From an uncultured virus (IMG/VR IMGVR_UViG_3300028572_000010) (taxonomy: Duplodnaviria; Heunggongvirae; Uroviricota; Caudoviricetes), in IMG/VR virus record IMGVR_UViG_3300028572_000010, positions 1-64,000 of that record: a stretch of DNA of 64,000 nt; one strand, 5' to 3'. Within the stretch, counting starts at the first letter, position 1; each line of letters starts with the position of its first letter. A program made the position numbers and the translations under genes. The notes beneath the pieces are model-generated. The model was given only the letters and a program-made list of their open reading frames with translations. It made no database searches and was not told the DNA's origin. Below are positions 27,586 to 51,014 of the stretch, piece after piece.

Positions 27586-27840
27586 ATGATAAATATTAAT
27601 TCTTATATCGTTACAGAAAATTCAGTGGTTAGTGGAGTTACTTCTGGAGTTGAGGCATTACTTAAAGATGTGAATAACTTTAGCAAACCTGAGGTAGTTA
27701 TAAATACAATCGCTAGTTCGGTAATGGATGAACTATGCAATGTATTTGATTTCGGAGATCAGCCGCTAAGATTCACCCCAGACTTGATGCGGAAAATACT
27801 GCAATTAGCTAAGGAGCAGGAAAAGGAAGAGAAAGCTTAA
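27586..27840 (+). CDS. Hypothetical protein
   Basis: 84 aa; TTGACA-N16-TATATT lies 7 nt before the ATG. Confidence 0.65.
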   Translation: MININSYIVTENSVVSGVTSGVEALLKDVNNFSKPEVVINTIASSVMDELCNVFDFGDQPLRFTPDLMRKILQLAKEQEKEEKA

Positions 27841-30692
27841 TTGTAGTTAAGCCAAGATTTAGGTTCTTGATTCTTGGCTATTAAATTAGTTATTTCTTGA
27901 TTAAGATTATCTTTTGGTTTACTGATTGAATTTCTAATATATGAATCTGTACCAGTAGGTTTGGGATTGAATGTAAGTTTATCCAATAAACTAGGTTTTG
28001 GTGTGGCAAAATAACGTTGCACTAAAACCTTTCTCTTTTCTGGAGGCAAACTATCATGACTATGGAAACGTACTGATCTTCCGATAACTTGTCTCTCTTT
28101 AGGAAGGTTCCAAAAAGGTTCCAAAAGTTGTGTCAAATTTGTAGCCTTCAAATCCAATCCTTCAGCCCCAGCTCCTGATACTAATAATGCTCTTAATTTA
28201 TTAGCATTATAATCTTTAACTGCCTGGTCTCTTATAGTAGGTGTTACAGCTCCACTAAACTCTCCAAATGGTATATTATTCTTTCTTAATAATGATTCAT
28301 AAGGTCTAAGACCATTATTAAGATAATTACTATATACTAGAGCTTTATAGTTTGGATCTTGTTTTAATTGTATTTGTAAAAACTTAAAAGCTGCATCTAT
28401 TTTAGGGGATTCCACGTCTCTTAAATTTTTAGTAAATCCAGCAGTTGAATTGCTTACTTGTCTAGGTCCACTTAAAAATGCTCGCATACCTTCTAATTCA
28501 CCACGTCCAGGAGGTAAATTATGTTTAATTCGATAACGTGTCCAAAATGGTGTCTTTCCGAGTATTGTATCATATATCTCTTGTTGTTTAGCACCCATAG
28601 GAACATTAACTTCTTGCTCCGTCACAGTAGGATATCCTTCTTGAGTAGGTTTATAGTAGTCAACATACTTATCCAGAATCTTAGATAGTTGAGCTTTATT
28701 CTGTAGCTTATATTGAATGCCTGGAGAAACTCCCATTAATCTACCAAAAAATCCAGGTTTAACTTCTTCCTGTTTAAAATATTGTTTTTTAAACTCAGAT
28801 AAATTATTAGGTAATACTTGTTTCTTTGCTACTAAGTTAACAAGATTACTTAATTCAGTAGGATCATTTAGAATTGGAGTTCCTGAAAGGAGAAGGCGCT
28901 TGGCTGGATTCGTTTTAACCAATGCTTGATATAATTCACTATTACTATTTTTAGCTTTTTGAGCTTCATCTACTATCTGCAAACCAGTATTGTATATTGG
29001 AGTATTTAACTTAGAATTAGCAAATCTTTGTTGACTAATTAAGTTGATATTAGAAGGATTAGAATTGCCATACCATCTCTGCAACTCTTTACGATAGTTG
29101 GATTTTAATGAAGCTGGAACAATGATATCAGTCTTAGGTAATCCTAATGCTTTCCAGGATTCAATACTTTCGCGTGTATTGTGCGTAACTATACAATGTT
29201 CAGTAATATATAGATGAGAAGGGTCATCGATTGCAATACAGATTGTCTCTTTTTTTCCAACATATTCTATACTTTTTATATATCTAGTTGGTTTATATTT
29301 AGTCTTAGGAATTACTTGAATTGCTTTTCTGTGTAATCTAAATGGATTGATATTTGGTGGTAAACTTAACCAAACCCTATAACATAAAGCTCCTTTCTTT
29401 TTTTCTCCTTTATATGAATATGTTGGAATTCTAGTTGTTATCTTTGCTAAACCTCCTAGTGATTCAACAAGGAATTGCACACCATCTGCTAACTGTTTTG
29501 AGACGGACTCATAAACTATAGCCATACCATCTTTACTTACAGTACCATCAGTATCCATTAACCCTTGTAATAATGCTATGCGAGATTTCACTGTGTTAAA
29601 CATATAAATATCAGGTATAAATTTTGTAAAACAATTCATACCTTGTAATTTTAATTCTTTAAATGCTTGAACAATGTAACTGTTATATCCTTTTGGTTTA
29701 CCTAATCCATAAGTATATTTAGAATATTTTTTAAGAGTAAAATTTGGAAATAAAGACTTAATTGATTGCAGAATTTCGTCATCTGCTGTTGTTATCGCAC
29801 AGCCACCTCCACAAATACTACCATCTCCTAAAATCAAACCAACAAAATACGGGTCTAGTGGAAGTTTTCTATATTTAAAATGAATAGGTTTCACAATAGG
29901 AATAGTATAATTTAAACTATTATCATTAGATAATACTGTATCTTTAATTTCGCTTGTACTCCTGACTTTACCTACCCACCTATATTTAAATTGATCCTTG
30001 CTTTTAACGTAATTTTTACGTTCACATCTAGATTGAGTGAACCATAAATGAGAATCATCACATTCTATAGTAGCACCATCCCTAAAAGTAATTTTATACA
30101 CATCTTTATACCCTTGAGGATAGACTCCAGTCACATTAGCTTTCACACCATTAACAGAAATCACTTCTGTGTTTTGTTTTATATCTTCTATATTTATCCA
30201 CCCTGTAGGTGTTAATATCTTTGAGCCTATAACCAATCCTTTTCCACTACCCATCCCATGATAAAGCACTAACCCTGAAGTATTCTTATCTTGAATCTTC
30301 TTAATTACTCTAGCTTGTTGAGGTTGTAACGCTTCTTCACCAGCCTCCTTCTTCAAAGGTACGGTTCTAGGATTCCCACCTACTACTGGATAACCCTCAG
30401 CCCTTAACTTCTTTGCCAACCATTCCTCGGTTCTTTCAGCTTTATGAAATGGCATGGGATTTAAATCTTTATAATGTTCAGGCCTAAGTCTAAGCCCATG
30501 ATTCTTTACCCAGATATTGGCTTTTAGTCCAGTTTTATGTTTCTCGAATCTAGCTTCAGGACTCAAACCAGTCTCTCCTACATAAAGTGGAGGTAGTTCT
30601 GGATTGTAGTTAGGATTCAACTTTAAAAACTTTTTTTTAGCTAAGACCTCCTTATCCAATTCAACTACATATACATTGTGTCGGTCTGTCAT
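27837..30692 (-). CDS. GIY-YIG-like nuclease fused to an SNF2-family helicase, containing an intein (start revised to MTDRH)
   Basis: NVYVVEL..LYVGETG..RFEKH; HGMGSGK|T Walker A; IVDEAQ; LSGTP; EGLDL; QVIGRSVR. Confidence 0.85.
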   Translation of the reverse strand: MTDRHNVYVVELDKEVLAKKKFLKLNPNYNPELPPLYVGETGLSPEARFEKHKTGLKANIWVKNHGLRLRPEHYKDLNPMPFHKAERTEEWLAKKLRAEGYPVVGGNPRTVPLKKEAGEEALQPQQARVIKKIQDKNTSGLVLYHGMGSGKGLVIGSKILTPTGWINIEDIKQNTEVISVNGVKANVTGVYPQGYKDVYKITFRDGATIECDDSHLWFTQSRCERKNYVKSKDQFKYRWVGKVRSTSEIKDTVLSNDNSLNYTIPIVKPIHFKYRKLPLDPYFVGLILGDGSICGGGCAITTADDEILQSIKSLFPNFTLKKYSKYTYGLGKPKGYNSYIVQAFKELKLQGMNCFTKFIPDIYMFNTVKSRIALLQGLMDTDGTVSKDGMAIVYESVSKQLADGVQFLVESLGGLAKITTRIPTYSYKGEKKKGALCYRVWLSLPPNINPFRLHRKAIQVIPKTKYKPTRYIKSIEYVGKKETICIAIDDPSHLYITEHCIVTHNTRESIESWKALGLPKTDIIVPASLKSNYRKELQRWYGNSNPSNINLISQQRFANSKLNTPIYNTGLQIVDEAQKAKNSNSELYQALVKTNPAKRLLLSGTPILNDPTELSNLVNLVAKKQVLPNNLSEFKKQYFKQEEVKPGFFGRLMGVSPGIQYKLQNKAQLSKILDKYVDYYKPTQEGYPTVTEQEVNVPMGAKQQEIYDTILGKTPFWTRYRIKHNLPPGRGELEGMRAFLSGPRQVSNSTAGFTKNLRDVESPKIDAAFKFLQIQLKQDPNYKALVYSNYLNNGLRPYESLLRKNNIPFGEFSGAVTPTIRDQAVKDYNANKLRALLVSGAGAEGLDLKATNLTQLLEPFWNLPKERQVIGRSVRFHSHDSLPPEKRKVLVQRYFATPKPSLLDKLTFNPKPTGTDSYIRNSISKPKDNLNQEITNLIAKNQEPKSWLNYN
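29178..30239 (-). mobile_element. Class 3 intein with LAGLIDADG endonuclease (354 aa, Gly1) in Walker A
   Basis: GLVIGSKILTPTGW...CDDSHLW...VGLILGDG...LQGLMDTDG...TICIAIDDPSHLY..VTHN|T; WCT triplet present. Confidence 0.85.
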
Positions 30693-30693
30693 A

Positions 30694-31371
30694 TCAGTAA
30701 TTATAGTAAGTCCCTTTATCCACCCAATTAGTACCACCTTGTAGATTATATTGATGAGGCAAGCTTGTAGTTATTGGATCATTAGGATTCCTATCTTTAA
30801 TAATTCTATTTATTATATTCACTACGTCTGGGTATTCATTAGTCTTAAATTGACTTGGAATTAATGGACCATAATGCCTGGGAGGGATTTGAACAACGTT
30901 AGTAAGATTAGGGAATAATTTACGGTACATAGCTGGAGTAGCAAACCCTTTAAGCACTTCGTTTGGACTCACATTAGTATTGGAGCAATCCCCACCATTA
31001 CAAGCAGTAGTATAAATATTATTGATATTGTTAGTAGCTGGACCAATAAGTTTAGCCAATGTTTGAGGAGTATAAGTTAGTGGTTCATTGTTATAAAGCA
31101 AGTTTTTAGAATTATTAGAATCACTTTGAAATGCATATTCTCCATTAATAGCACTATCAGGACCACCGTGAGCATTTATATTAAGGGTATTACCACCTTT
31201 ATTAACAAAATTATGCATATTTGGAGGGAGACCACCAACAGTATAAGCATTGTGTGGTAATGAAATCATCGGAATTTTTGGAGGTGTAGGAGGTGTAGGA
31301 GGTGGAGGAGGTGGAGGGAGTGGGCCAGCAGCCTTGATAAAACCATTAATAAATGCATCTAACTTATTCAT
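30694..31371 (-). CDS. FINGFIKAA-tag protein with a putative clan CD (caspase/CPD-like) protease domain
   Basis: MNKLDAFINGFIKAAG, poly-Pro linker, LNINAHGG and IYTTACNGG. Confidence 0.55.
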   Translation of the reverse strand: MNKLDAFINGFIKAAGPLPPPPPPPTPPTPPKIPMISLPHNAYTVGGLPPNMHNFVNKGGNTLNINAHGGPDSAINGEYAFQSDSNNSKNLLYNNEPLTYTPQTLAKLIGPATNNINNIYTTACNGGDCSNTNVSPNEVLKGFATPAMYRKLFPNLTNVVQIPPRHYGPLIPSQFKTNEYPDVVNIINRIIKDRNPNDPITTSLPHQYNLQGGTNWVDKGTYYNY

Positions 31372-31714: not shown

Positions 31715-31805
31715 AAATCTAACCTAGTTTAATGTATATTCCAGGTTAATTAAAGACTAAAGTTTGAGGTTGTGGAAATCAATAATAAGAGTATATAATC
31801 AAAAT

Positions 31806-34559
31806 ATGAGTTATACTGTACTTAATAAGGGAAATTTTGAGAAGGTGGACAAACTAAATGAAGATCATATATCCATGCCTTCGAGTAGGGATTTATTTGC
31901 TTTACCTACTAACATGATTACTGGGCTAAATTCAGTTTCCGGCGGGCGTGTGTTACTAGGAGCCAAGGCTTCTCTCCAAGCTATACCTTTAGTAAATCCT
32001 GAACGTCCGTTAGTAGAAAGTTCAGATGACACTAACAAAGAAAGTACTCAAGAACTATATGGTAAACATTATTTATCTGTAACTGCAACTAAACCTGGTA
32101 CTGTTACTGAAGTTACTGAAAATCATATTAAAGTAGATAATACAGATAAAACCAAGTCTACCTATCAACTATATAATAACTTTCATTTAGGCAGGAAAAG
32201 CTTTATTACTCATACCCCTAAAGTGAAGGTTGGTGATAAAGTTAAAACTAATGAAGTAATAGCTTACAGTAATTATAATGATAAAGAAGGTAATATGGCG
32301 ATGGGAACTAACCTTACTACTGCTATAATCCCGTACCGCTCAGACAACTTTGAGGATGCTTTTGCAGTGACTGAAAGTGGTGCTAAAAAGTTGGCAGCAG
32401 AACAAATGATCAATTTTAGTATTGAAGAGAAATTTGGAGTAGAGGCAGGCAAGGATAAATTTGTAGCACTATTTCCTAATAAATATACGAATAATCAAAT
32501 TAAAAATATAGATTCAGATGGAGTGGTTATAGTAGGGTCTAGATTGAAAGCTGGAGACCCGGTAATCCTGGCTTACTCACCCAGAGCATTAAAGAGTACA
32601 GATTTGGCATTAGGTAAGCTGAGTAAAGTATTAAAACATGCATTCAAAGATAATTCAGAAGCCTGGGACTACGAACATGATGGAGAAGTAGTGGATGTAA
32701 CCAAACATGGCCCACTTATTACAGTACATATCAAGACGGTAAGAAGTCTATTACCTGGTGATAAGATTTCTAATTACTTTGGAGCTAAGGGTGTAACGAA
32801 GATTGTATCAGACTCACAAGCTCCACTACTACCTAATGGGAAGCCAGTTGATATCATGCTTAACTCCATGTCCATCACGTCAAGAGTTGCACCAGCCTTA
32901 GCCATAACTCTAGGCCTTGGTAAATTAGCTGAGAAGACTGGTAAGACTATTAAAATGGATCAGTTTAGAAAGGATTCATCTATTAAGAATGTAATTAATG
33001 TATTAAAGAAGAATAATATAAATGATACTGAACAACTATATGATCCAATTACTGGTAGAAATATTGAAGCAGTTGTAGGTCCATTATTCTATAGTAGGTT
33101 AACTCATATTAGTGAAGATAAACTAAGTACTAGAAGTCAGGGGTCCGGATACAGTTTCGACCGGCAACCAAGTAAGTCAGCAGTGGAAGGTGGTTCATCA
33201 AAGAGAATAGGAAATTTAGGTACTACAGCTTTGCTAAGTCATGATGTCAGACATGTATTGGAGGATATAGGTACTGTTAAAGGTACTCAGAATGATGAAT
33301 TCTGGCGTGCTATTAAATTGGGCCAAACCCCACCCAGCCCTAAAGTTCCATTCATCTTTAACAAGTTCATAGATAGTTTAAAAGCTGCCGGTATTAATGT
33401 AGATAGAGTTGGTAATACCTTTAATATCCTACCTTTAACAGATAAGGATACTACTGCTTTGAGTAATGGTGAAATTAAGAAACCTTCATTATTCAAGCCA
33501 CATCAAGAAGAACTAATACATGAACCTGGCGGACTATTTGATCCTAATATAATAGGCATATTAGGTGACAAGTTTAATCACATAAATCTTAATCATCCCA
33601 TACCTAATCCTATTAGTGAGGATTATCTCAGAAAGTTGTTAGGAGTTACCAAGTTTAAGTTTAATGATATGGTAGTGGATGGGGAAATGGAAAAAGCCCT
33701 TAATAATATAGATCTGGATAAGAAGATAGAAGAAATGAAGAAGTATATAGGTAGTGAGAAGAAGACTAGAAGAGATGATGCCGTTAAATTGTTAGAATTT
33801 CTCACTACACTAAAAGAACATAAGTTACATCCTAAAGATTTGATGTTGCATAAAGTACCTATTCTACCAGCCCAATACAGACCTGCTAGTAAGATGGGTG
33901 ATGTAGTATTAACTAGTGATGTTAATAATCTATATAAAGACCTCATACTAAATAACAATGCACTTAAAAATACTGAGAATGTGCCGGACGAAGTAGTTAG
34001 GAAATTAAAACAAAATGAATATGATGGAGTAAAAGCTGCCTTTGGTTTGGGTGATCCAATTAATAAGAAACACCAGGATAAGAATGTTAAAGGTATATTA
34101 GCTACTATGTTTGGATTAAAGGGTGGAACGGCTAAAAGTACAATGTTTCAGAGTAAGGTGGTTAATAAGAGTCTGGATTTGGTGGGAAGAGCTGTGTTAA
34201 CTCCAGATACTAGATTGGATGTAGACCAGGCTAGTGTACCTCAAGATATGCTGTGGCAGATATATAAACCTTTTGTTATTAGAAGGTTGGTTATGAAGGG
34301 TGTACCAGCTATTAGTGCGGTTGATTATGTTAAAAAACATAGTCCATTAGCAGTTATGGCATTAAAGGAAGAGATGGCAGTAAGACCTGGTATTATAACG
34401 CGAGATCCAGCCTGGCATAAATATAATCTATTAGGGTTTAATTTAATTGCTAATCCAAATTCTAAAGATAAAACTATTAAAATGAATCCATTAGTATTTA
34501 AGGGGTATGGTGCGGATAGTATTGTAGATTATATTATTTATAGAGAGAAAATTAATTGA
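31806..34559 (+). CDS. rpoBC: RNA polymerase beta C-terminal part fused to beta-prime N-terminal part, ending in a 13-aa N-intein (start revised to MSYTV)
   Basis: RVLLGAKASLQAIPL, GTNLTTAIIPYRSDNFED, GDKISNYFGAKGV, PVDIMLN, RLTHISEDK (RpoB); GEIKKP..GGLFDPNIIG, VPILPAQYRP, NKSLDLVGRAV, RDPAWHK, MNPLVFKGYGAD (RpoC). Confidence 0.92.
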   Translation: MSYTVLNKGNFEKVDKLNEDHISMPSSRDLFALPTNMITGLNSVSGGRVLLGAKASLQAIPLVNPERPLVESSDDTNKESTQELYGKHYLSVTATKPGTVTEVTENHIKVDNTDKTKSTYQLYNNFHLGRKSFITHTPKVKVGDKVKTNEVIAYSNYNDKEGNMAMGTNLTTAIIPYRSDNFEDAFAVTESGAKKLAAEQMINFSIEEKFGVEAGKDKFVALFPNKYTNNQIKNIDSDGVVIVGSRLKAGDPVILAYSPRALKSTDLALGKLSKVLKHAFKDNSEAWDYEHDGEVVDVTKHGPLITVHIKTVRSLLPGDKISNYFGAKGVTKIVSDSQAPLLPNGKPVDIMLNSMSITSRVAPALAITLGLGKLAEKTGKTIKMDQFRKDSSIKNVINVLKKNNINDTEQLYDPITGRNIEAVVGPLFYSRLTHISEDKLSTRSQGSGYSFDRQPSKSAVEGGSSKRIGNLGTTALLSHDVRHVLEDIGTVKGTQNDEFWRAIKLGQTPPSPKVPFIFNKFIDSLKAAGINVDRVGNTFNILPLTDKDTTALSNGEIKKPSLFKPHQEELIHEPGGLFDPNIIGILGDKFNHINLNHPIPNPISEDYLRKLLGVTKFKFNDMVVDGEMEKALNNIDLDKKIEEMKKYIGSEKKTRRDDAVKLLEFLTTLKEHKLHPKDLMLHKVPILPAQYRPASKMGDVVLTSDVNNLYKDLILNNNALKNTENVPDEVVRKLKQNEYDGVKAAFGLGDPINKKHQDKNVKGILATMFGLKGGTAKSTMFQSKVVNKSLDLVGRAVLTPDTRLDVDQASVPQDMLWQIYKPFVIRRLVMKGVPAISAVDYVKKHSPLAVMALKEEMAVRPGIITRDPAWHKYNLLGFNLIANPNSKDKTIKMNPLVFKGYGADSIVDYIIYREKIN
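34518..34556 (+). mobile_element. Split intein N-fragment (SIVDYIIYREKIN)
   Basis: Follows YGAD exactly where the catalytic motif breaks; begins with Ser and resembles the intein block A beta-strand. Confidence 0.75.
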
Positions 34560-34584
34560 CAAGTTCAACTAGTCACCGTATTGT
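34556..34584 (+). promoter_or_regulatory. sigma70-type leaderless promoter in the intein split
   Basis: TTGACA (overlapping the TGA stop)-N17-TATTGT-N6-ATG. Confidence 0.7.
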
Positions 34585-34590
34585 GTCTAT

Positions 34591-36312
34591 ATGATTAATT
34601 ATAAATATACACTAGTACCTATTTCAGATTTCCCTAGAATAGAAAATTCAGCCACTACTACTATAAATGGTAATATCCTTTATGATGTACCTAGTAATGT
34701 AGAAGTAAAATCATTAAACCTTATAACTGGTGAAGTAGATTGGGTAAATCCAAAGACATTCTCGATTCATCCTAATGTACCTTTATATTTGGTACAATTT
34801 ATAGATGGGGATTTTATATTTGCAGCCAAAGATCATAGTTTATTAGCTTATACTGATAGTGGTATTGAAGAAGTTGATACCGAAGAGGCAGTAGGTAGGT
34901 ATTGTCCTAGTGATGTTACAACTATAGCACCCAATATTCAATCAAGTGTATTAGCTGAAGGTATGATGGGTACTAGAGGAATGAAAGGAATACGAGGAAA
35001 AGGATTTGTTAAAAATTCATTTAACTTGCAACTTAATTATAAAACCGGACTTTTTATAGGAATGGTTTTAGGTGATGGTTGGGTAGATAATGCTAATCAA
35101 CTTTTCTTAGCCGGTTCTACCAAAGAAAAATTAATGAATAGAAAAGTATTTGCTGATTTATGTAATAGTGAATATCTTCCTTATGAAAATGGAGTTAAAG
35201 AAATAGATAGAGTTAGTGAGAATATGATGGGGCAATTTACTTCTAGAGGTAAAACTAGAGCTTCTTGTGCCTGGTTTAATAAGTGGTTAAAAGAGCAGAT
35301 AGGGAGTGGAGCTTTTAATAAGAAAATACCTACTTTTAGTTTAAACGGTCCTGAAGAACATCTACTAGGTATATTAGATGGGTTAATCTCAACTGATGGA
35401 ACAGTAAGTGTCAGTTCTTCTAATAAAACAGTTATAAATATAAGTATCTGCACATCATCAATTCATTTAATTAACGGTTTAAGATATATGAGTAAACGGT
35501 TAAATTTAAATTATGGAGTATATAAAGGGGCATCTAGGCTGAGTAGTAAAGATAATTTCTCCTTCAGATTTCATACTGGGACATTTAAAAAGTTAGTTGA
35601 AAGAACAAAATTTAGAATAAGTCATGAGTTGAAGAAGGAAAAATTAGAGAATAGCTTAAAAGATATAACAGGTATAGGTGATAACTTTAATGACTTAGTA
35701 CCACTTCCTTCAGAAACTGTTAAAAAAAATATAATTACAGCTATTAATAATAAATATAAATTACAAAAGAATAAGGAACTTTATAATTTAAAATATAGAT
35801 TAAGCCAGGAATTTAAAACAGATAGATTTCGTAAAAGCACTTTAAAAGAAATAATTGAAATACTTCTAGTTGAGTTAAAGAATAATGAACAATGGATATC
35901 ATATTTAGGTAAGGTGTATAATGGTAGTTTAAAATGGAAGAAAGTTAAAAGAGTAACTAAGTTACAATCTAATACTGCTTACGATTTGGAAATACCAAAC
36001 TACGGAAGTTTCTTAACTATAGGAGGATATACAAAAAATTCCGACGGAGACCAACTTAATGTCCATATTCCAGGCACTGAAGAAGCACGTAAAGAAGTTA
36101 TAGCTAAAATGATGCCTAGCAAAAATTTATTATCTGTTAAATCTTTTCAACCTGTATTAATCCCTAGTAATGAAGCAGCTTTGGGCCTTTATGGACTAAG
36201 TACAGAAAACAAACATAACACTCCTAAAAAATATAAAACTGAACAAGAAGTAGTTGCTGCATATAACAGAGGTGATTTAGAGCCAGGAGACAACATAGAA
36301 ATAGAGAAATGA
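34591..36312 (+). CDS. rpoC: Split intein C-fragment with LAGLIDADG endonuclease (483 aa) + 90-aa beta-prime middle fragment (SDGDQLNVHIP...)
   Basis: LVPISDF, AAKDHSLL (block B), FIGMVLGDG, LDGLISTDG, AYDLEI (block F), TKN|SDGDQLNVHIPGTEEARKE..MMPSKNLL..PSNEAALGLY. Confidence 0.9.
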   Translation: MINYKYTLVPISDFPRIENSATTTINGNILYDVPSNVEVKSLNLITGEVDWVNPKTFSIHPNVPLYLVQFIDGDFIFAAKDHSLLAYTDSGIEEVDTEEAVGRYCPSDVTTIAPNIQSSVLAEGMMGTRGMKGIRGKGFVKNSFNLQLNYKTGLFIGMVLGDGWVDNANQLFLAGSTKEKLMNRKVFADLCNSEYLPYENGVKEIDRVSENMMGQFTSRGKTRASCAWFNKWLKEQIGSGAFNKKIPTFSLNGPEEHLLGILDGLISTDGTVSVSSSNKTVINISICTSSIHLINGLRYMSKRLNLNYGVYKGASRLSSKDNFSFRFHTGTFKKLVERTKFRISHELKKEKLENSLKDITGIGDNFNDLVPLPSETVKKNIITAINNKYKLQKNKELYNLKYRLSQEFKTDRFRKSTLKEIIEILLVELKNNEQWISYLGKVYNGSLKWKKVKRVTKLQSNTAYDLEIPNYGSFLTIGGYTKNSDGDQLNVHIPGTEEARKEVIAKMMPSKNLLSVKSFQPVLIPSNEAALGLYGLSTENKHNTPKKYKTEQEVVAAYNRGDLEPGDNIEIEK

Positions 36313-36328
36313 AAGAAGAAGACCTTAT

Positions 36329-36550
36329 ATGATAACTAGAGATGTATGGTTAGTATTGAACGAACAACAGAAATTAGATAAGTTGATAGAAGCTCTAACT
36401 CAACTAAGAGATATTGATTTGCCTAAAAGTAAATTAAAGGGTAGAATAGACCAAGGTAGATTAGCTAATGTTAAAAAATCCTTGGAAGAATTTATTATTG
36501 ATGAAGCTGTGGCCTGGGAAAGTGAGAAACTATTACAAAAGTATCATTAA
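36329..36550 (+). CDS. Hypothetical protein
   Basis: 73-aa ORF. Confidence 0.55.
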   Translation: MITRDVWLVLNEQQKLDKLIEALTQLRDIDLPKSKLKGRIDQGRLANVKKSLEEFIIDEAVAWESEKLLQKYH

Positions 36551-36613
36551 TATAACTACCATCAATCTCCATAATAGATAGAACTTTGAAATAGAGATAA
36601 TACCAATTTTAAT

Positions 36614-37267
36614 ATGACTTACAGACAAATCTTAGAAGAAATAGGTAGTATGATGCATAAACAAGCATTTATACCATCACCTAATAGTACTGCTGCTCAA
36701 CAACAAGGAGGTTTACCTGGGCAACAACCTCAACCTCCACAATCTTCACAATCTCCACAACCAAGTCAAGGTGGATCAGGTCAACAACCAGACCCACAAC
36801 AGATGGCTCAATTAGCTCAACAAATGGGTCAAGGCCAAGGAATGCAACAAGAAGGCCAGGGTCAACCTCAGCAAGATCTGAGTCAGGGAGGTCAGCCACA
36901 ACCAGGACAAAGTGATGATTTAGCCCCAAAACAACAGTCTAGAGGGTTAAAAGATACTACAGTTACATTAAGTGTAGCTGATCTATTAGATTTACATAGT
37001 GGCGGGAAGGCAACACAGAGTCATTTGAAGACTGAACAATTAAAAGAAAAGCATCAATATGAACGTGCTAAGATGCATAGGGAAGAGCAACAGAAGCAGA
37101 GAGAAGAACAGCAGAAGCAACAACAAGAACAAATGATGCAACAACAGCAACAACAAGGTATGATGGGTGGAGGTATTTATGGTAGTGGGCCGATGGATGG
37201 TAGTAATCCTGCACAACCAACCCAACCAGCACAATCAGCCCAACCCCAACAAGGTCTAGGTATATGA
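36614..37267 (+). CDS. Gln/Pro-rich low-complexity putative head protein
   Basis: MMHKQAF followed by Q/P/G tracts. Confidence 0.65.
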   Translation: MTYRQILEEIGSMMHKQAFIPSPNSTAAQQQGGLPGQQPQPPQSSQSPQPSQGGSGQQPDPQQMAQLAQQMGQGQGMQQEGQGQPQQDLSQGGQPQPGQSDDLAPKQQSRGLKDTTVTLSVADLLDLHSGGKATQSHLKTEQLKEKHQYERAKMHREEQQKQREEQQKQQQEQMMQQQQQQGMMGGGIYGSGPMDGSNPAQPTQPAQSAQPQQGLGI

Positions 37268-38641: not shown

Positions 38642-40981
38642 ATGTCTGAGGTAACAACAGTAGGCAAAATCCTGCTTAAGCATTACTCTCCTGCTAACTC
38701 TCATTCATTTATAGAAAGCAAAGATTTGGATAAGAAGAATATAGGTGCTTTCTTCTCTAATTTAGCAGAGCATAATGAAGATAGTTATAAGAAAGTAGTA
38801 TCAGATTTAACTAGACTTGGGTTTGAATCAGCTACTAGGTTGGGTAGTACTGTCAGACTAGGTGACTTGCTTCCACCCTCCTTTAAAGATGAGAGATTTA
38901 AAGAACTCAATAAAGAGATTAAGAGCATAAAGGATAAAAAGTTACCTAAAAAGAAAGAAGATGATGAACTAACAAATTTGCTCAACAAGTTTTCTGACAC
39001 TGCAAATAAGGAAATAATAGAAGAAGGCCTTAAAGATAATAAGACTCTAGCCAAGGTAGTTAAAGCCGGAGCGAGAGGGAGTCCCGAACAATATCGTCAA
39101 ACTATTTTCTCCCCAGTAGCCGTTAACGATAATAAAGGCGGTATTCTAACTGATTTTATTATTGATAGATCTTTTGCTGAAGGATTAACCTTGCCCCAAT
39201 ATTTGGCACATACTTTTGGTGCGAGACAAGCCAGCGCGGCCACAAAATTATCAGTGGCAGAAGGTGGGTTTTTAGGCAAGCAATTAGCTAGAGCAAACAT
39301 GACAATGGTGATAGAAGAACATGATTGTGGTACTCATAATGGAATACCTGTAAAAACAAATGATAATGATTACATCGGTTCGTTCTTAGCTCATCCTATA
39401 GACAAATATCACTATAATAATGAAGTTACCTCTAGTATGCTGGGTATTCTAAAAAGCAAAGGCATAGAAGAGATTGTAGTTAGAAATCCTATAACTTGTG
39501 AAGCTAGTCATGATGGAACTTCTAGTGCTCTTTGTCAATTATGTGTGGGTATCAGAGGTAAAGGCTTGTCTGAACTTAATTCTTTTATTGGAGTTGTTGC
39601 CGGTACTTCAGCAGCAGAACCAGTAGCACAAGGGGCGTTAAACTGTTTAGCTGAAGGAACACTAGTAAGAATGGCAGATTATTCTATTAAAGCTATTCAA
39701 GATATAAAGGTCGGAGATATGGTGCTTGGCTCTGATAACGCTGGTCAAACCTCTCCAGTCAAAGTTCTAAGGTTATTCAATCAAGGATTACAACCTGTTA
39801 ATAAATATATATTTATAGATAATAAAGATAAAGTAATTGAACTATATGCTACAGAGAATCATAAGATACTTTGTGAAACCCTGGAATGTAGTAATGTATT
39901 AACAGAAATGCCTCTAAAAGATATTGATGAAACTATAGATGTAGTTACTACAAATGATTATTGGGTAGTACTATACAATAAACCAGAGTATCTAGGATTA
40001 ATACAATGTTGGGATATTGAAGTAGATAGTAAAGATGCTTTATTTGTATTAGCGAATGGCTTAATAGTACATAATAGTAAGCACAAGGGAGGTAGTGCAA
40101 CTGGTTCTAATCAATTTGGTGGCTTTAAATACATCAATCAATTATTTAATATCCCGGATTCATTTGTCCATGAAGCCCCAATAGCTGACTCTGATGGTAA
40201 GATAGAAGAAGTAAGAGTAGCACCACAAGGAGGTCATTATATAGTTATTAAGCATGATAATGGAAAACTTGAAGAATATTATGTACACCCAGATTTGAAA
40301 GTATTGGTTAAATCAGGCCAGCTAGTTGAAGAAGGTGATGTGTTAAGTGATGGTATACCTAATCCAGCTAAAATAACAAAGCATAAAGGTATTGGAGAAG
40401 GTAGAAGGTATTTCTCCAAAGCTATTAAAGATACATTTGAAACTAGTCAATTAGGTGGAATAAATAAACGTAATTTTGATATTATAAGTAAAGGTTTAAT
40501 TACTCATGTTAAAATAACCAATCCTAAAGGCTTAGGGAATAACTTGCCAGACAGTATAGTAAATTATCATACACTGGAGAAAGCCTATTCTCCTAGAACT
40601 AATAGTAAGAAGGTCAGAACTGATATGGCTCAAGGTTTATACTTGGAAATACCTGAATTACACTATACAATAGGAACTAGAATCACCAGTACTGTAATTA
40701 ATGAGTTGAAGAAACATAATATCGATTATGTTACGGTAAATGAGACAAAACCTGAATTTGAACCAGAAATGCAAAGATTATTAGATGTCCCAGCACATGA
40801 ACATGACTGGATGCATACCTTATATAGTACTAATCTGGAACGTAGATTAATAAAGGCTGTCAATACTGGAGCTTCTAGTAGTTTGGAGGGACCATCTCCA
40901 ATACCAGGGCTTGCATATGCCAAAGGATTTGGGACCCATAAATTTGCAGAAGAACTGGAAGAGCAGTTATCATTTGAGTAA
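38642..40981 (+). CDS. rpoC: RNA polymerase beta-prime C-terminal part with mini-intein
   Basis: TTVGKILL, AGARGSPEQYRQ, SFAEGLTLPQY..TFGARQ (bridge helix), EHDCGT, CQLCVG, AAEPVAQGALN|SKHKGG (trigger loop). Confidence 0.92.
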   Translation: MSEVTTVGKILLKHYSPANSHSFIESKDLDKKNIGAFFSNLAEHNEDSYKKVVSDLTRLGFESATRLGSTVRLGDLLPPSFKDERFKELNKEIKSIKDKKLPKKKEDDELTNLLNKFSDTANKEIIEEGLKDNKTLAKVVKAGARGSPEQYRQTIFSPVAVNDNKGGILTDFIIDRSFAEGLTLPQYLAHTFGARQASAATKLSVAEGGFLGKQLARANMTMVIEEHDCGTHNGIPVKTNDNDYIGSFLAHPIDKYHYNNEVTSSMLGILKSKGIEEIVVRNPITCEASHDGTSSALCQLCVGIRGKGLSELNSFIGVVAGTSAAEPVAQGALNCLAEGTLVRMADYSIKAIQDIKVGDMVLGSDNAGQTSPVKVLRLFNQGLQPVNKYIFIDNKDKVIELYATENHKILCETLECSNVLTEMPLKDIDETIDVVTTNDYWVVLYNKPEYLGLIQCWDIEVDSKDALFVLANGLIVHNSKHKGGSATGSNQFGGFKYINQLFNIPDSFVHEAPIADSDGKIEEVRVAPQGGHYIVIKHDNGKLEEYYVHPDLKVLVKSGQLVEEGDVLSDGIPNPAKITKHKGIGEGRRYFSKAIKDTFETSQLGGINKRNFDIISKGLITHVKITNPKGLGNNLPDSIVNYHTLEKAYSPRTNSKKVRTDMAQGLYLEIPELHYTIGTRITSTVINELKKHNIDYVTVNETKPEFEPEMQRLLDVPAHEHDWMHTLYSTNLERRLIKAVNTGASSSLEGPSPIPGLAYAKGFGTHKFAEELEEQLSFE
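39644..40075 (+). mobile_element. Mini-intein (144 aa) in the trigger loop
   Basis: CLAEGTLV...ATENHK...CWDIEV...LIVHN|S; no endonuclease. Confidence 0.9.
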
Positions 40982-48455: not shown

Positions 48456-51014
48456 ATGATTCTTAAATTTACTGGTAATAATGACTTTGATTTTGATTGT
48501 GAAAGTGTGGTGCTTTTAAAAGACTCAGGCAAAGAGTTAAAGAAGAGGGCTTCTGCTAAATCATTATTGAAGTACGAAAAGACTCCAAATCAAGAGGATT
48601 TGCATATAATTGCTGTAGGATCATATGAAGGTACAGGATGTTTCTTTAAAGGAGCACCAGTACAAACTATCAATGGTATAAAACCTATAGAAGATATAAA
48701 AGTTGGAGATTTAGTACTTACACATAAAGGCAGATATAGAAAAGTGCTAAAAACCTACGAAAATGATTTTAGTGGAGTTAAAGTATCATTAGATATTGTT
48801 AGTCTGTGTGATAGAATAGAATGCACTGATAATCATCCTATACAAGTAATTAAAGCTGTAGATTTTAGAACTAAACATCGCTGTCCTTCATTATTAGATG
48901 ATGGTGTGAATCCCAAAGATGTATTGGATGATATTATAAGCAAAGCCCCCTATATTCCAGCTAGTGAGATTAAACCTGGAGATTATGTATTAACTCCTAT
49001 TAATATAGATAATGAAGATAAAAAAGAAGTATTTTCTGAAGATGATGCTTATTTGTTTGGTTATTACTTAGCTGAAGGATGTTTGGCGAAAGAATATAGA
49101 GAAGATAGAAGTCATTGTGGTGAGTATACAAAAATCCTGTTTACTATGGCGGTTGGGGATCAGCCTTGTATTGATAAGATCCAATCTATTATAAAGAAAC
49201 TGAATGGGGCCGAAACTAGTATTCAAAAATCATTTACTAGTGAATATGGCAGAAGATTTTCGTTCCAAAATTATGAAAAAGCCCAACAATGCCTAAAACT
49301 ATTTGGTTGTCATTCCACTATAAAATTCTTATCACCTATAATATTCCAGCAATCTATTGAGTGGAAACTTAAGTTCTTAGCTGCTTATTTTGATGGTGAT
49401 GGACATGTTATAGGACCTGATTCAAATGGAGCAGCCAGATATATAGGTTCAATGTCAGCCTCCACAGCTTCTAGAAATCTAGCTTATGATTTACATCGGT
49501 TATTGGCTTCTTGTGGTATAACTTCGAATGTTTATAAAGGAATGAATAAACACTCTAATGGATGCTTTGGAAAAACTGACCATGTTATTTATACTGTAGG
49601 GGTTGGGAGTTGTCATTCGAATAAAATACTACAATATACTCTTCGACTAGCTCCATCAAGTAAACAACCAAAATATCTTGCAGGTAGATCTTGGATTAGT
49701 AGTAATCATTTAGTATTACAAGTTGGACTGGTTGAACTATCTGAAATAGAAGATACAATAAAGTATAATCTAGAAGTTGAAGAAGATAATACATATGTAG
49801 TGGACATCCAAGTACATAATAGCAATCGCAACGGCGATTGCTTTTTAGAGAAGGATTGTATCAAAAATCATCATTATTTCTCTGATAGTAAAAGAGCTGT
49901 GCATAGGCATCATCAAAATAAACCAAATGATCCTAAGTATGGAACTATAAAAGCTTCAGCTTATAATGACAAGATGCGTAGAATAGAATTAGTAGTAGGA
50001 TTGGATAGAGATAAATGTGCAGATATTCTAGATGAGCAAGAACGAACAGGTAATACGAATTGGAGTATGGCTGCAAAAATGGCCTCTGACCTATGCTCTT
50101 GGTGTGGTCATAGAGCTAAAACAGAGAATGATAGATGTGATTGCGTTAAGAATCATTTAGGAGAAATTAATAAAGAGGGTGAAATGTGCCGAATGATTAA
50201 TACTCCGGACCCTAGATGGTTTGAGATTAGTTATGTACGTAGACCTGCTGACAGGATTGGTATGAGCTTATCCAAACTAGCGTCAGATTTAACTTATAAA
50301 CCACTTCCTCCCTCTCACTTCCTTAATCTATACAGTGATATTTATATACCTGATGAATTAATGATTAGTAAGAAAGCTTCGGATAAAAGGGAATTACTAA
50401 CGAAATTAGCAGAATTAGAAAAGTATGTGGATGCTGTAACTAAAGGTAATCCAGTTACTAGTAAGGATAAGTTTATTAAGGAACATGGACATAAACTTAA
50501 GCATACTCCTAATATAGATAGTAATAGCATAGATTCATTACGTAAACTAGATCCAGGTACTGTATTGAAGACATTGGCAGATCATGGAATAGTTTTAAAG
50601 CCTGAGGATTTTAGTAGATATGTGTTTGATGATAAGGTTAAGCCTGAGCGAGTAGAAGGAATGAAGACACATTTACCTCATATCTATAATAAGCTGGATA
50701 ATGATAAGGCTGTAAACTCTGAAACATTTGATCCTAGCCTGCATACTCATACTCCTCATGATTTGGATAAGACGGTTAAAGGTTTGGAGGAAGGGCATAG
50801 TTTGAAAGAAGGTCCAGTAGTTAGAAGACTAATGATTGTAATTTGTGGTAGTGGGAATATTAAGAGAGAAGAACAAGAACCTACTAAAGAAGCATGTGAC
50901 CTGGAATTTGCAAAGAAGTATGCGGAGTATCAGCTAGCTAGTTTAAACTACATTAATGAACAAGGTAAGCTAACTGATGATATTCTACTTAATACTATTT
51001 TAATGAATCAGTAA
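48456..51014 (+). CDS. Prohead protease (HK97/assemblin-like fold with Zn-finger insert) containing an intein
   Basis: Extein: SNRNGDCF...HRHHQN...YGTIKASAYN...WSMAA..CSWCG..C..FEISYVRRPAD. Confidence 0.7.
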   Translation: MILKFTGNNDFDFDCESVVLLKDSGKELKKRASAKSLLKYEKTPNQEDLHIIAVGSYEGTGCFFKGAPVQTINGIKPIEDIKVGDLVLTHKGRYRKVLKTYENDFSGVKVSLDIVSLCDRIECTDNHPIQVIKAVDFRTKHRCPSLLDDGVNPKDVLDDIISKAPYIPASEIKPGDYVLTPINIDNEDKKEVFSEDDAYLFGYYLAEGCLAKEYREDRSHCGEYTKILFTMAVGDQPCIDKIQSIIKKLNGAETSIQKSFTSEYGRRFSFQNYEKAQQCLKLFGCHSTIKFLSPIIFQQSIEWKLKFLAAYFDGDGHVIGPDSNGAARYIGSMSASTASRNLAYDLHRLLASCGITSNVYKGMNKHSNGCFGKTDHVIYTVGVGSCHSNKILQYTLRLAPSSKQPKYLAGRSWISSNHLVLQVGLVELSEIEDTIKYNLEVEEDNTYVVDIQVHNSNRNGDCFLEKDCIKNHHYFSDSKRAVHRHHQNKPNDPKYGTIKASAYNDKMRRIELVVGLDRDKCADILDEQERTGNTNWSMAAKMASDLCSWCGHRAKTENDRCDCVKNHLGEINKEGEMCRMINTPDPRWFEISYVRRPADRIGMSLSKLASDLTYKPLPPSHFLNLYSDIYIPDELMISKKASDKRELLTKLAELEKYVDAVTKGNPVTSKDKFIKEHGHKLKHTPNIDSNSIDSLRKLDPGTVLKTLADHGIVLKPEDFSRYVFDDKVKPERVEGMKTHLPHIYNKLDNDKAVNSETFDPSLHTHTPHDLDKTVKGLEEGHSLKEGPVVRRLMIVICGSGNIKREEQEPTKEACDLEFAKKYAEYQLASLNYINEQGKLTDDILLNTILMNQ
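48639..49820 (+). mobile_element. Intein with LAGLIDADG endonuclease (394 aa)
   Basis: CFFKGAPV...CTDNHP...LFGYYLAEG...FLAAYFDGDG...YNLEVEEDNTY..VHN|S. Confidence 0.9.

Follow-up and report, generated by a model that had tools for sequence, protein, structure and literature searches.

Inteins that occur in nature broken at the position named S1 (PMC13014065) are known with very short N-terminal fragments (Int-N), of 16 amino acids (aa) in VidaL and 15 aa in PolB16 OarG (PMC13014065, PMC11766414, PMC10189870), and for the latter it is stated that no other natural intein is known to be both cysteine-less and atypically split (PMC13014065, PMC10189870). The element considered in this work lies in a stretch of DNA of 64,000 nucleotides (nt), hereafter the window, which corresponds to positions 1 to 64,000 of a 127-kb IMG/VR virus record (IMGVR_UViG_3300028572_000010; completeness estimate 58%) of a large or jumbo phage from peat soil. 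There, a gene of the multisubunit RNA polymerase (RNAP) extends over two open reading frames, ORF1 and ORF2, and what these frames carry at their junction is, in our judgment with good probability, a functional, cysteine-independent, atypically split (S1) class-1 intein that has kept a LAGLIDADG endonuclease within its C-terminal fragment (Int-C). Sequence comparison places this putative intein between the first and the second Asp of the DxDGD loop of the polymerase, and, together with the structural models, supports the idea that an intact catalytic loop needs protein trans-splicing.

With PolB16 (Pasch et al., 2023; PMC10189870) the window element shares a natural S1 break, a metagenomic origin, the class-1 type with Ser1/Ser+1 oxyester chemistry, and a very short Int-N. 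The two differ in the length of this fragment, 15 aa in PolB16 (the “shortest characterized”) against 13 aa in the window; in Int-C, which with 168 aa is too short for an endonuclease domain in PolB16, whereas that of the window has 483 aa and includes LAGLIDADG; in the host gene, PolB in one case and the catalytic loop of RNAP beta′ in the other; in the residue that precedes the His of the NX motif, Arg or Lys in PolB16 and Ile before the invariant His60 of the window element; and finally, in that splicing has been demonstrated experimentally for PolB16, while the window element is known from its sequence and from models. VidaL (PMC13014065, citing Burton et al., 2020) is likewise a natural S1 split with an ultra-short Int-N but, unlike the window element, it is cysteine-dependent, its Int-N has 16 aa, and it resides in another host gene. 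In the terminase inteins AceL-TerL, GOS-TerL, and Cat-TerL (PMC11766414) the break is of the S2 type, after the first helix, and leaves an Int-N of 25, 37, and 30 aa, respectively. The same break point as in the window (residue 4 of ORF2 aligning with residue 12 of Ssp DnaB) has been reached by engineering in Ssp DnaX S1 (11 + 122 aa) and in the M86 variant of Ssp DnaB (11 aa), where about 11 residues suffice (PMC11766414, PMC13014065, PMC3620165) and where splicing takes place with an 11-residue Int-N (PMC13014065, PMC11766414); these, however, are man-made mini-inteins, in contrast to a natural element that carries its endonuclease. Lastly, the fractured genes (Dassa et al., 2009; PMC2677866) hold a free-standing endonuclease gene between their halves and interrupt enzymes of DNA synthesis and repair, whereas in the window the halves are parted by just a 31-nt spacer and the endonuclease is within Int-C. 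The element therefore differs from the known splits in its shorter Int-N, its new host protein and site, its endonuclease within Int-C, and the 31-nt separation of its halves. In the published passages compared here, no natural split intein with an endonuclease domain inside a fragment is mentioned, and a literature search, which left subscription journals outside, found no report of an intein in the DxDGD loop of a phage RNAP.

Anatomy of the two reading frames

ORF1 (31806-34559, + strand; 917 aa, P0007) has an open frame listed from TTG 31764, and its start at ATG 31806 is supported by the database gene call (P0007) and by the relatives P0012 and P0013. Pfam identifies in it Rpb2_6, Rpb1_1, and the beginning of Rpb1_2 (profile positions 2-48), and ORF1 accordingly joins the C-terminal half of RNAP beta to the start of beta′. 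The label of beta/beta′ “fusion ORF”, given to it in an earlier prediction made from the sequence alone (the original prediction), is acceptable. The end of ORF1 reads ...NPLVFKGYGAD-SIVDYIIYREKIN-TGA. Its first 904 codons (31806..34517, + strand) form the N-extein, which ends in ...FKGYGAD, that is, with the first Asp of the DxDGD motif according to Pfam and to the alignment with P0010; the following 13 codons (34518..34556, + strand), by direct reading, form the Int-N SIVDYIIYREKIN, of which Ser1 (Ser905 of ORF1) would be the nucleophile; and the stop TGA occupies 34557..34559 (+ strand), identically in the contigs L003-L005. A spacer of 31 nt follows (34560..34590, + strand), with a TAG at 34570-34572 in the frame of ORF2.

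ORF2 (34591-36312, + strand; 573 aa, stop at 36310-36312) is in the +1 frame relative to ORF1, and ATG 34591 is its earliest possible start, because the TAG of the spacer shuts its frame upstream. It opens with MINYKYTLVPISDFPRIE and contains block B (...FAAKDHSLL, with His82), the LAGLIDADG motifs LGDG (160-163) and STDG (267-270), block F (AYDLEIP), and the intein end ...GGYTKN|SDGDQLNVHIP, after which 79 residues remain to the stop; Pfam recognizes LAGLIDADG_3, Intein_splicing, and the last 28 positions of Rpb1_2 (137-164). The end of ORF1, the gap of 31 nt, the TAG at 34570, the change of frame, and the series of intein blocks in ORF2 (LVPISDF, AKDH, the two LAGLIDADG motifs, YDLEI, KN) followed by SDGDQLNVHIP are thus all where the original prediction had placed them. 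Int-C comprises 483 codons (34591..36039, + strand), with a HINT fold that is short of its first strand, and with His60, His82, the endonuclease insert, Asp465, and Lys482-Asn483. The C-extein (36040..36312, + strand; SDGDQLNVHIPGTEEAR..., 90 codons and the stop) begins with Ser+1 (Ser484) and provides the second and third catalytic Asp; in PDB chains of bacterial beta′ it aligns to the region of NADFDGDQMAVHVP, and its end coincides with that of gp206 of Salmonella phage Arash.

The nucleophiles and the key block residues of a class-1 intein are present, namely Ser1, Ser+1, a C-terminal Asn, the block B His, and the block F Asp, and the original prediction was also right in its Ser1/Ser+1 pair, in the Lys before the terminal Asn, and in the position of the endonuclease inside Int-C. 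This homing-endonuclease domain (35023..35670, + strand; approximately residues 145-360; PF14528, E = 8e-8) has Asp162 and Asp269 intact, with G161-D162-G163 and D269-G270 invariant in 13 of 13 aligned sequences, and over residues 145-360 the structural model matches enzymes of the I-DmoI and I-Tsp061I type with Z of 15-17. The Int-C would then hold a LAGLIDADG domain with its motifs, its acidic residues, and, as modeled, an I-DmoI-like fold. A sequence search of the PDB with the query A3 returned beta′ chains only, through the extein, and matched no intein.

The junction of the two ORFs is genuine and not an assembly error. Each of the three frames meets a stop in the interval 34557-34594, so that the ORFs cannot be joined by any one indel, frameshift, or stop read-through, and a continuous frame would take two indels or more. 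The 240 nt around the junction are letter-identical in three other IMG/VR contigs (L003-L005), and in the 218-kb metagenome contig L009, which carries the same ORF pair, ORF2 is 100% identical and the N-extein is again in a different frame. At the level of reads, 14 peat DNA runs (of 24 runs listed) contain all the sampled words of 33800-36400, and one DNA contig covers this interval with zero differences; in three RNA libraries, where cover by single runs is partial, neither a joint nor an indel nor a skipped part was reported, and the RNA contig X16 (record 9) is colinear across 34286-34625. The two-frame arrangement that the original prediction had read at 34500-34600 is in this way confirmed by other assembled contigs, by one DNA contig, and by one bridging RNA contig. 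Two further RNA contigs meet inside the spacer, X17 ending at 34575 and X15 starting at 34576, and X16 crosses that point; as contigs cannot show ends, this hints only weakly at a transcript boundary, whether an end or a start, that would lie 15 nt ahead of the ORF2 ATG.

Conservation of the break and fit between the fragments

Two proteins, P0004 (568 aa, 57% identical) and P0005 (562 aa, 55% identical), span ORF2 from end to end and begin at the same Met, with MNNYKYT and MNTYKYT, respectively. In a search with ORF1 residues 560-931, which gave 363 matches of which the best 120 were examined, two relatives of ORF1 end as it does, P0012 (917 aa; also P0127/P0128) with GFGAD|STIDYIVYREKLTS and P0013 (916 aa) with GFGAD|SVIDHIIYREKLTS. 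The tail has 14 residues in these relatives; compared with it, the Int-N of the window is identical at 8 of 13 positions, most of the remainder being conservative changes, and the single indel amounts to one residue at the tail end. P0012 with P0004, and P0013 with P0005, would each be pairs of adjacent genes, given that the partners sit on contigs of equal size: the contig of P0128, of the P0012 cluster, measures 12695 nt, as does the longest one of P0004, and P0013 and P0005 are both on contigs of 9834 nt. The exteins of the three split lineages are 72-75% identical and the inteins 55-57%, and Ser1, His82, Asp465, Asn483, and Ser+1 are retained in all three. A break, a start Met, a tail, and key residues that are retained to this degree would not be those of a recent pseudogene.

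Contiguous and intein-free homologues, which the original prediction had indicated should be looked for, were both found. P0129 (1436 aa), the best match of Int-C outside the split group, has this very site occupied by a contiguous intein, GAD|SILGVVKVYEQGEGKFVNIADVP......GGVILYQ|SDGDQLNIQVP, with Ser1, a terminal Gln, and Ser+1; its first strand (SILGVVKVY...) is homologous to the Int-N of the window, and the turn of its hairpin is the position at which the window is broken. No contiguous form at the same site closer than P0129 was found. As for the exteins, they are colinear with the intein-free P0010 (991 aa), the N-extein aligning to residues 1-902 and the C-extein to residues 903-990; the predicted spliced product, of 994 aa, would fall within the range of 985-1000 aa to which 105 of the 119 other listed homologues belong. 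Seven intein-free homologues (P0006, P0009, P0010, P0011, P0015, P0017, P0020) have an uninterrupted D-x-DGD. Among 117 proteins of more than 500 aa, 48 have Ser as the residue x, 45 have Asn, and 9 have Cys, so that the change from F to S, in which the original prediction had seen the source of the +1 nucleophile, holds only with respect to bacterial beta′, Ser being the commonest residue in the intein-free members of the family; Ser+1 is native to this family of phage RNAPs. The nearest relatives of the exteins (P0009-P0011, 79-80% identical) are intein-free, and others 73-75% identical carry the intein, a patchy distribution that fits a cassette that is still mobile, or repeated loss.

Regarding structure, a model of ORF2 (AlphaFold2, from an alignment of 13 sequences; pLDDT 78, pTM 0.73) was matched to the PDB by VIA, and its residues 3-483 find the HINT fold of solved inteins with Z of 14-21. 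The best matches are inteins that bear an endonuclease, that is, PI-TkoII (2cw7; Z 21.3, root-mean-square deviation (rmsd) 6.9 Å, 389 aligned residues), the TliVMA intein (7qsu; Z 21.1, 6.1 Å, 330 residues), PI-SceI (1vde; Z 17.6, 8.0 Å, 312 residues), and PI-PfuI (1dq3; Z 16.6, 10.2 Å, 395 residues), mini-inteins remaining at Z 14-16. These contiguous LAGLIDADG inteins, with the TliVMA/PhoVMA structures (7qsu, 7qss, 7qst) among them, have the HINT and LAGLIDADG architecture of ORF2 (Z 16.6-21.3, 312-400 aligned residues, rmsd 6-10 Å, identity 12-17%) but are single chains, and ORF2 begins at their residue 11-15. Residues 3-6 of ORF2 align with residues 11-15 of the solved inteins (from residue 4 of ORF2 with 12 of PI-TkoII, Ssp DnaB, and Npu DnaB; from 5 with 12 of Mxe GyrA and with 11 of Aes123 PolB1; from 6 with 11 of PI-SceI), and residue 483 with the last intein residue. 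Because the model aligns in this manner from residue 11-15 through to the last, ORF2 would lack only the first HINT strand, which is the S1 split position, and the missing piece would be about the size of the ORF1 tail.

The fit between the two fragments was examined by co-folding ORF1 residues 873-917 and ORF2 residues 1-500, with separate alignments. The median ipSAE of three runs is 0.88, while the best of three controls scores 0.01; the mark is attained by 116 solved complexes out of 157 and by 2 mismatched pairs out of 215; the runs share at least 63% of contacts, with a partner pLDDT of at least 44. The interface joins ORF1 residues 902-917 to ORF2 residues 2-12, 36-40, 60, 81-83, 461-465, and 481-484; tail residues 909-913 run antiparallel to ORF2 residues 5-10, and the 13-mer is set beside His60, His82, Asp465, and Asn483/Ser484. 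In the co-fold, then, the 13-mer fills the gap in the HINT fold of ORF2, as the original prediction had supposed, in a geometry that agrees with what would be expected once a HINT active site is assembled. The core of that prediction, an atypically split intein whose Int-N of 13 residues lies inside DxDGD, is supported by all of these elements: the conserved split, P0129, the colinear exteins, the model, and the co-fold.

If the intein functions as proposed, the product of ORF1 would be a beta/beta′ piece that ends in Asp904 and carries the 13-residue Int-N, and ORF2, translated on its own from ATG 34591, would provide the 483-residue Int-C and then the last 90 residues of the subunit. Upon association in the cell, the Int-N strand would dock antiparallel on ORF2 residues 5-10 and complete the HINT fold; Ser1 would form an ester with Asp904; by transesterification the N-extein would pass to Ser+1; Asn483 would cyclize; and an O-to-N shift would yield the 994-residue subunit, with its GADSDGDQ loop intact and able to bind the catalytic Mg. 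The ligated junction peptide would read GYGADSDGDQLNVHIPGTEEAR. The unspliced pieces would be unable to form the aspartate triad. Alleles free of the intein probably still acquire the two-ORF cassette in its entirety through homing by the endonuclease.

Alternative readings of the locus

That one continuous ORF is hidden by an error of sequencing or assembly, a possibility considered already in the original prediction, or by a non-standard code, can practically be set aside: the record is a metagenome assembly, but the junction is identical in other contigs, DNA and RNA contigs agree, two or more indels would be needed, and diverged relatives are called as the same two ORFs. Recoding of the stop codons was rejected as well, since TGA, TAG, and TAA all end genes in the window, which contains no tRNA genes. 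A more elaborate alternative is programmed translational bypassing of the type of T4 gene 60, in which the ribosome would take off at AAT 34554-34556, immediately before the TGA, hop 43 nt, and land at AAT 34597-34599, to give a contiguous precursor (...YREKIN-YKYTLVPISDF...) that would then splice in cis. What speaks for such a hop, and against two separate products, is a direct repeat ATTAAT(T) (34551..34599, + strand) that brackets a 43-nt stretch: the final sense codons of ORF1, ATT AAT (34551-34556), are found again, in frame, at codons 2-3 of ORF2 (34594-34599), which happens in 15 of 3364 tail-head pairs among the genes of the window (p ~0.004, for a test picked after the repeat had been noticed), and gene 60 likewise has a stop nearby and codons that match between take-off and landing (10.1101/2024.12.09.627546, PMC5462505). 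In addition, joining would give a hairpin of 25 residues as far as the FP motif, the length found in the contiguous P0257 and P0250. However, the RNA at and after the take-off site is unremarkable in its folding (34520-34640; z = -0.12, with 85 of 200 shuffles folding equally well); the tails of the relatives end in Ser (…KLTS) and their downstream ORFs start with MNN or MNT, with no matched residue at the protein level; a Met stands at the identical place in three lineages, in a start context normal for the genome, and a hop needs none. Bypassing is, moreover, very rare, while split inteins at an S1-type position are documented, and a gene-breaking insertion of 43 nt would account for the repeat, as its footprint, just as well. 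On balance, the hop seems to us highly improbable. Other possibilities for the spacer yielded little: with up to 3 mismatches allowed it has no copy elsewhere in the 127-kb record, and a repeated mini-element was rejected; an intron was dropped, as Rfam gave nothing above chance over 33800-36800 (the sole match being a snoRNA at E = 0.2), an absence of match that is no proof; no terminator was found in the gap region; and a sigma-70-like site, TTGACA-17-TATTGT (34556-34584, 10 of 12 matches), in a region with 3 such sites against 3.2 expected from shuffles, is evidence neither for nor against a separate promoter.

The two-fragment arrangement could also belong to a broken or non-splicing element, that is, to a dead subunit, or to one that assembles non-covalently, the intein serving as a dimerization handle or for cleavage only, and with the catalytic loop remaining on two chains. 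Several points weigh in this direction, or more generally against a functional trans-splicing intein. The penultimate His is missing, being replaced by Lys, Lys, and Cys in the three lineages, and the Thr of the block B TxxH by Ala or Gly (AKDH or GKNH). The alignment to intein profiles, advanced with the original prediction, did produce a match to Intein_splicing in Pfam, but with 27.7 bits it is under the cut-off of 35.8. An Asp at position -1 can favor side reactions. The candidate NX-motif His, the invariant His60, is preceded by Ile, and Pasch et al. give Arg or Lys at this place (PMC10189870). Subunits of phage RNAPs are often divided among genes, and in the window beta′ continues in the gene 38642-40981. 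With respect to the models, in one co-fold run the partner pLDDT is under 50, which makes its own fold uncertain, and the pass of the co-fold may come from likeness to solved split inteins, which would be likeness and not binding in the cell. Furthermore, the split relatives were compared at the protein level, and since RNA libraries may contain DNA, X16 speaks against a repair at the RNA level and leaves co-transcription unproven. Against a non-splicing element, in turn, stand the five key residues kept in three of three lineages despite an intein identity of 55-57%, the conservation of the tail of 13-14 residues, and the abundance of the phage, assembled in many runs (14 with all the sampled words), in whose 127-kb record there is no second Rpb1_2 catalytic domain besides this gene. 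Likewise, a DxDGD loop bearing a 13-residue tail and a 483-residue domain would be hard to square with Mg binding. A broken or non-splicing element is consequently unlikely, if less so than the hop, and the functional split intein is the reading that we retain.

Genome setting, related inteins, and biological meaning

The genes of the window, whose G+C is 36%, are tightly packed and use the standard genetic code, with TAA predominating among the stop codons (TGA, n = 13; TAG, n = 1). A Shine-Dalgarno motif is recognizable at none of the 59 gene starts, which instead have A/T-rich upstream regions that frequently end in ...TAT ATG; this fits a host that does not use Shine-Dalgarno pairing, and the context of the ORF2 ATG resembles the other starts. 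Because there is no other Rpb1_2 domain in the 127 kb of the record, which is incomplete, the split RNAP gene is probably without a backup copy. A megablast of 31764-36312 against GenBank phages gave no match, and tblastn gave distant relatives only (≤30% identity). The nearest homologue in an isolated phage is gp206 of Salmonella phage Arash (L001, OQ632216.1, 2552-7129; 1525 aa, ~30% identical), which is contiguous across ADYDGD, has the same end point as the C-extein, adjoins the portal gene, and has about 480 additional N-terminal residues; the N-terminal part of beta that matches these must be encoded elsewhere in the phage of the window.

The window also holds three contiguous inteins: a mini-intein in the C-terminal part of beta′ (38642-40981, + strand; ...GALN|CLAEGTLV...IVHN|SKHK), a Hint_2 and LAGLIDADG intein in a protein of 852 aa (48456-51014, + strand; ...GTG|CFFKG...VHN|SNRN), and a LAGLIDADG intein ending in ...VTHN|TRES in a SNF2-type helicase (27837-30737, - strand). 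In homologues of ORF1 (P0008, P0032, P0051, P0055), contiguous Cys1 inteins are found at three other sites of the subunit (...GTGY|CFDNETEV..., ...GDK(V/L)|CLT(E/P)DH(E/D)V..., and ...YDWN|CLSADTEV...), which makes this RNAP gene an intein hot spot.

An all-against-all HMMER search with Int-C gave 462 matches at E ≤ 1e-3. Most of the homologues of Int-C (among P0130-P0280; L011, L013, L019) sit four residues downstream, after DFDGD, with a C-extein of the form T/S-x-N-x-HVP, in proteins of approximately 600 to 3400 aa; several of these inteins end in Asp (VQD|T), and P0129 in Gln, rather than in Asn, and some are without the block B His. A scan of JGI metagenomes found L009, of the same phage, 34 loci with the motif uninterrupted, L046 with the C-extein tail only, and the related downstream intein in L011, L013, and L019, which are contigs cut at 5′; searches of IMG/VR with A3, P0004, and P0005 did not find the DNA of the diverged split relatives. 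The linker after the first strand is hypervariable, with 7-73 residues up to the FP motif and a median of 45.5 in 76 cases defined by regular expression, two of them clear false positives and one being P0129, at the window's own site. Many contiguous forms of the downstream site keep an internal Met about 20 residues before the FP motif, and at least nine ORFs with Int-C and C-extein start at this conserved Met (P0136, P0158, P0176, P0218, P0231, P0234, P0248, P0266, P0269), which may be further splits of the S1 type.

From the hypervariable linker, the conserved internal Met of the contiguous forms, and the Int-C-type ORFs that start there, a broader picture can be drawn, which we put forward tentatively and hold to be somewhat less than an even chance. 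The window would contain the shortest natural Int-N known, of 13 residues and serine-only, and would be the tip of a large undescribed clade of inteins in and beside the DxDGD loop of phage RNAPs in which the loop after the first strand is a hot spot of repeated gene breakage and re-fusion, with trans-splicing as the normal route to the polymerase in many uncultured phages and with the 43-nt insert flanked by ATTAAT as a footprint of breakage. A role as a post-translational switch, suggested in the original prediction, found no evidence; any intein at this site, even a contiguous one, makes activity dependent on splicing.

If the element does splice, natural split inteins would be extended to an Int-N of 13 residues with Ser/Ser chemistry, and the pair, or a form with the endonuclease deleted, would be a candidate tool for protein semisynthesis under oxidizing conditions, because peptides of 13 residues are easy to synthesize. 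An early stage of gene breaking would also have been captured, since the endonuclease is still inside the split intein and the halves are only 31 nt apart. And, for the phage itself, there would be a transcription enzyme without its Mg-binding aspartate triad until two separate proteins meet and are ligated.

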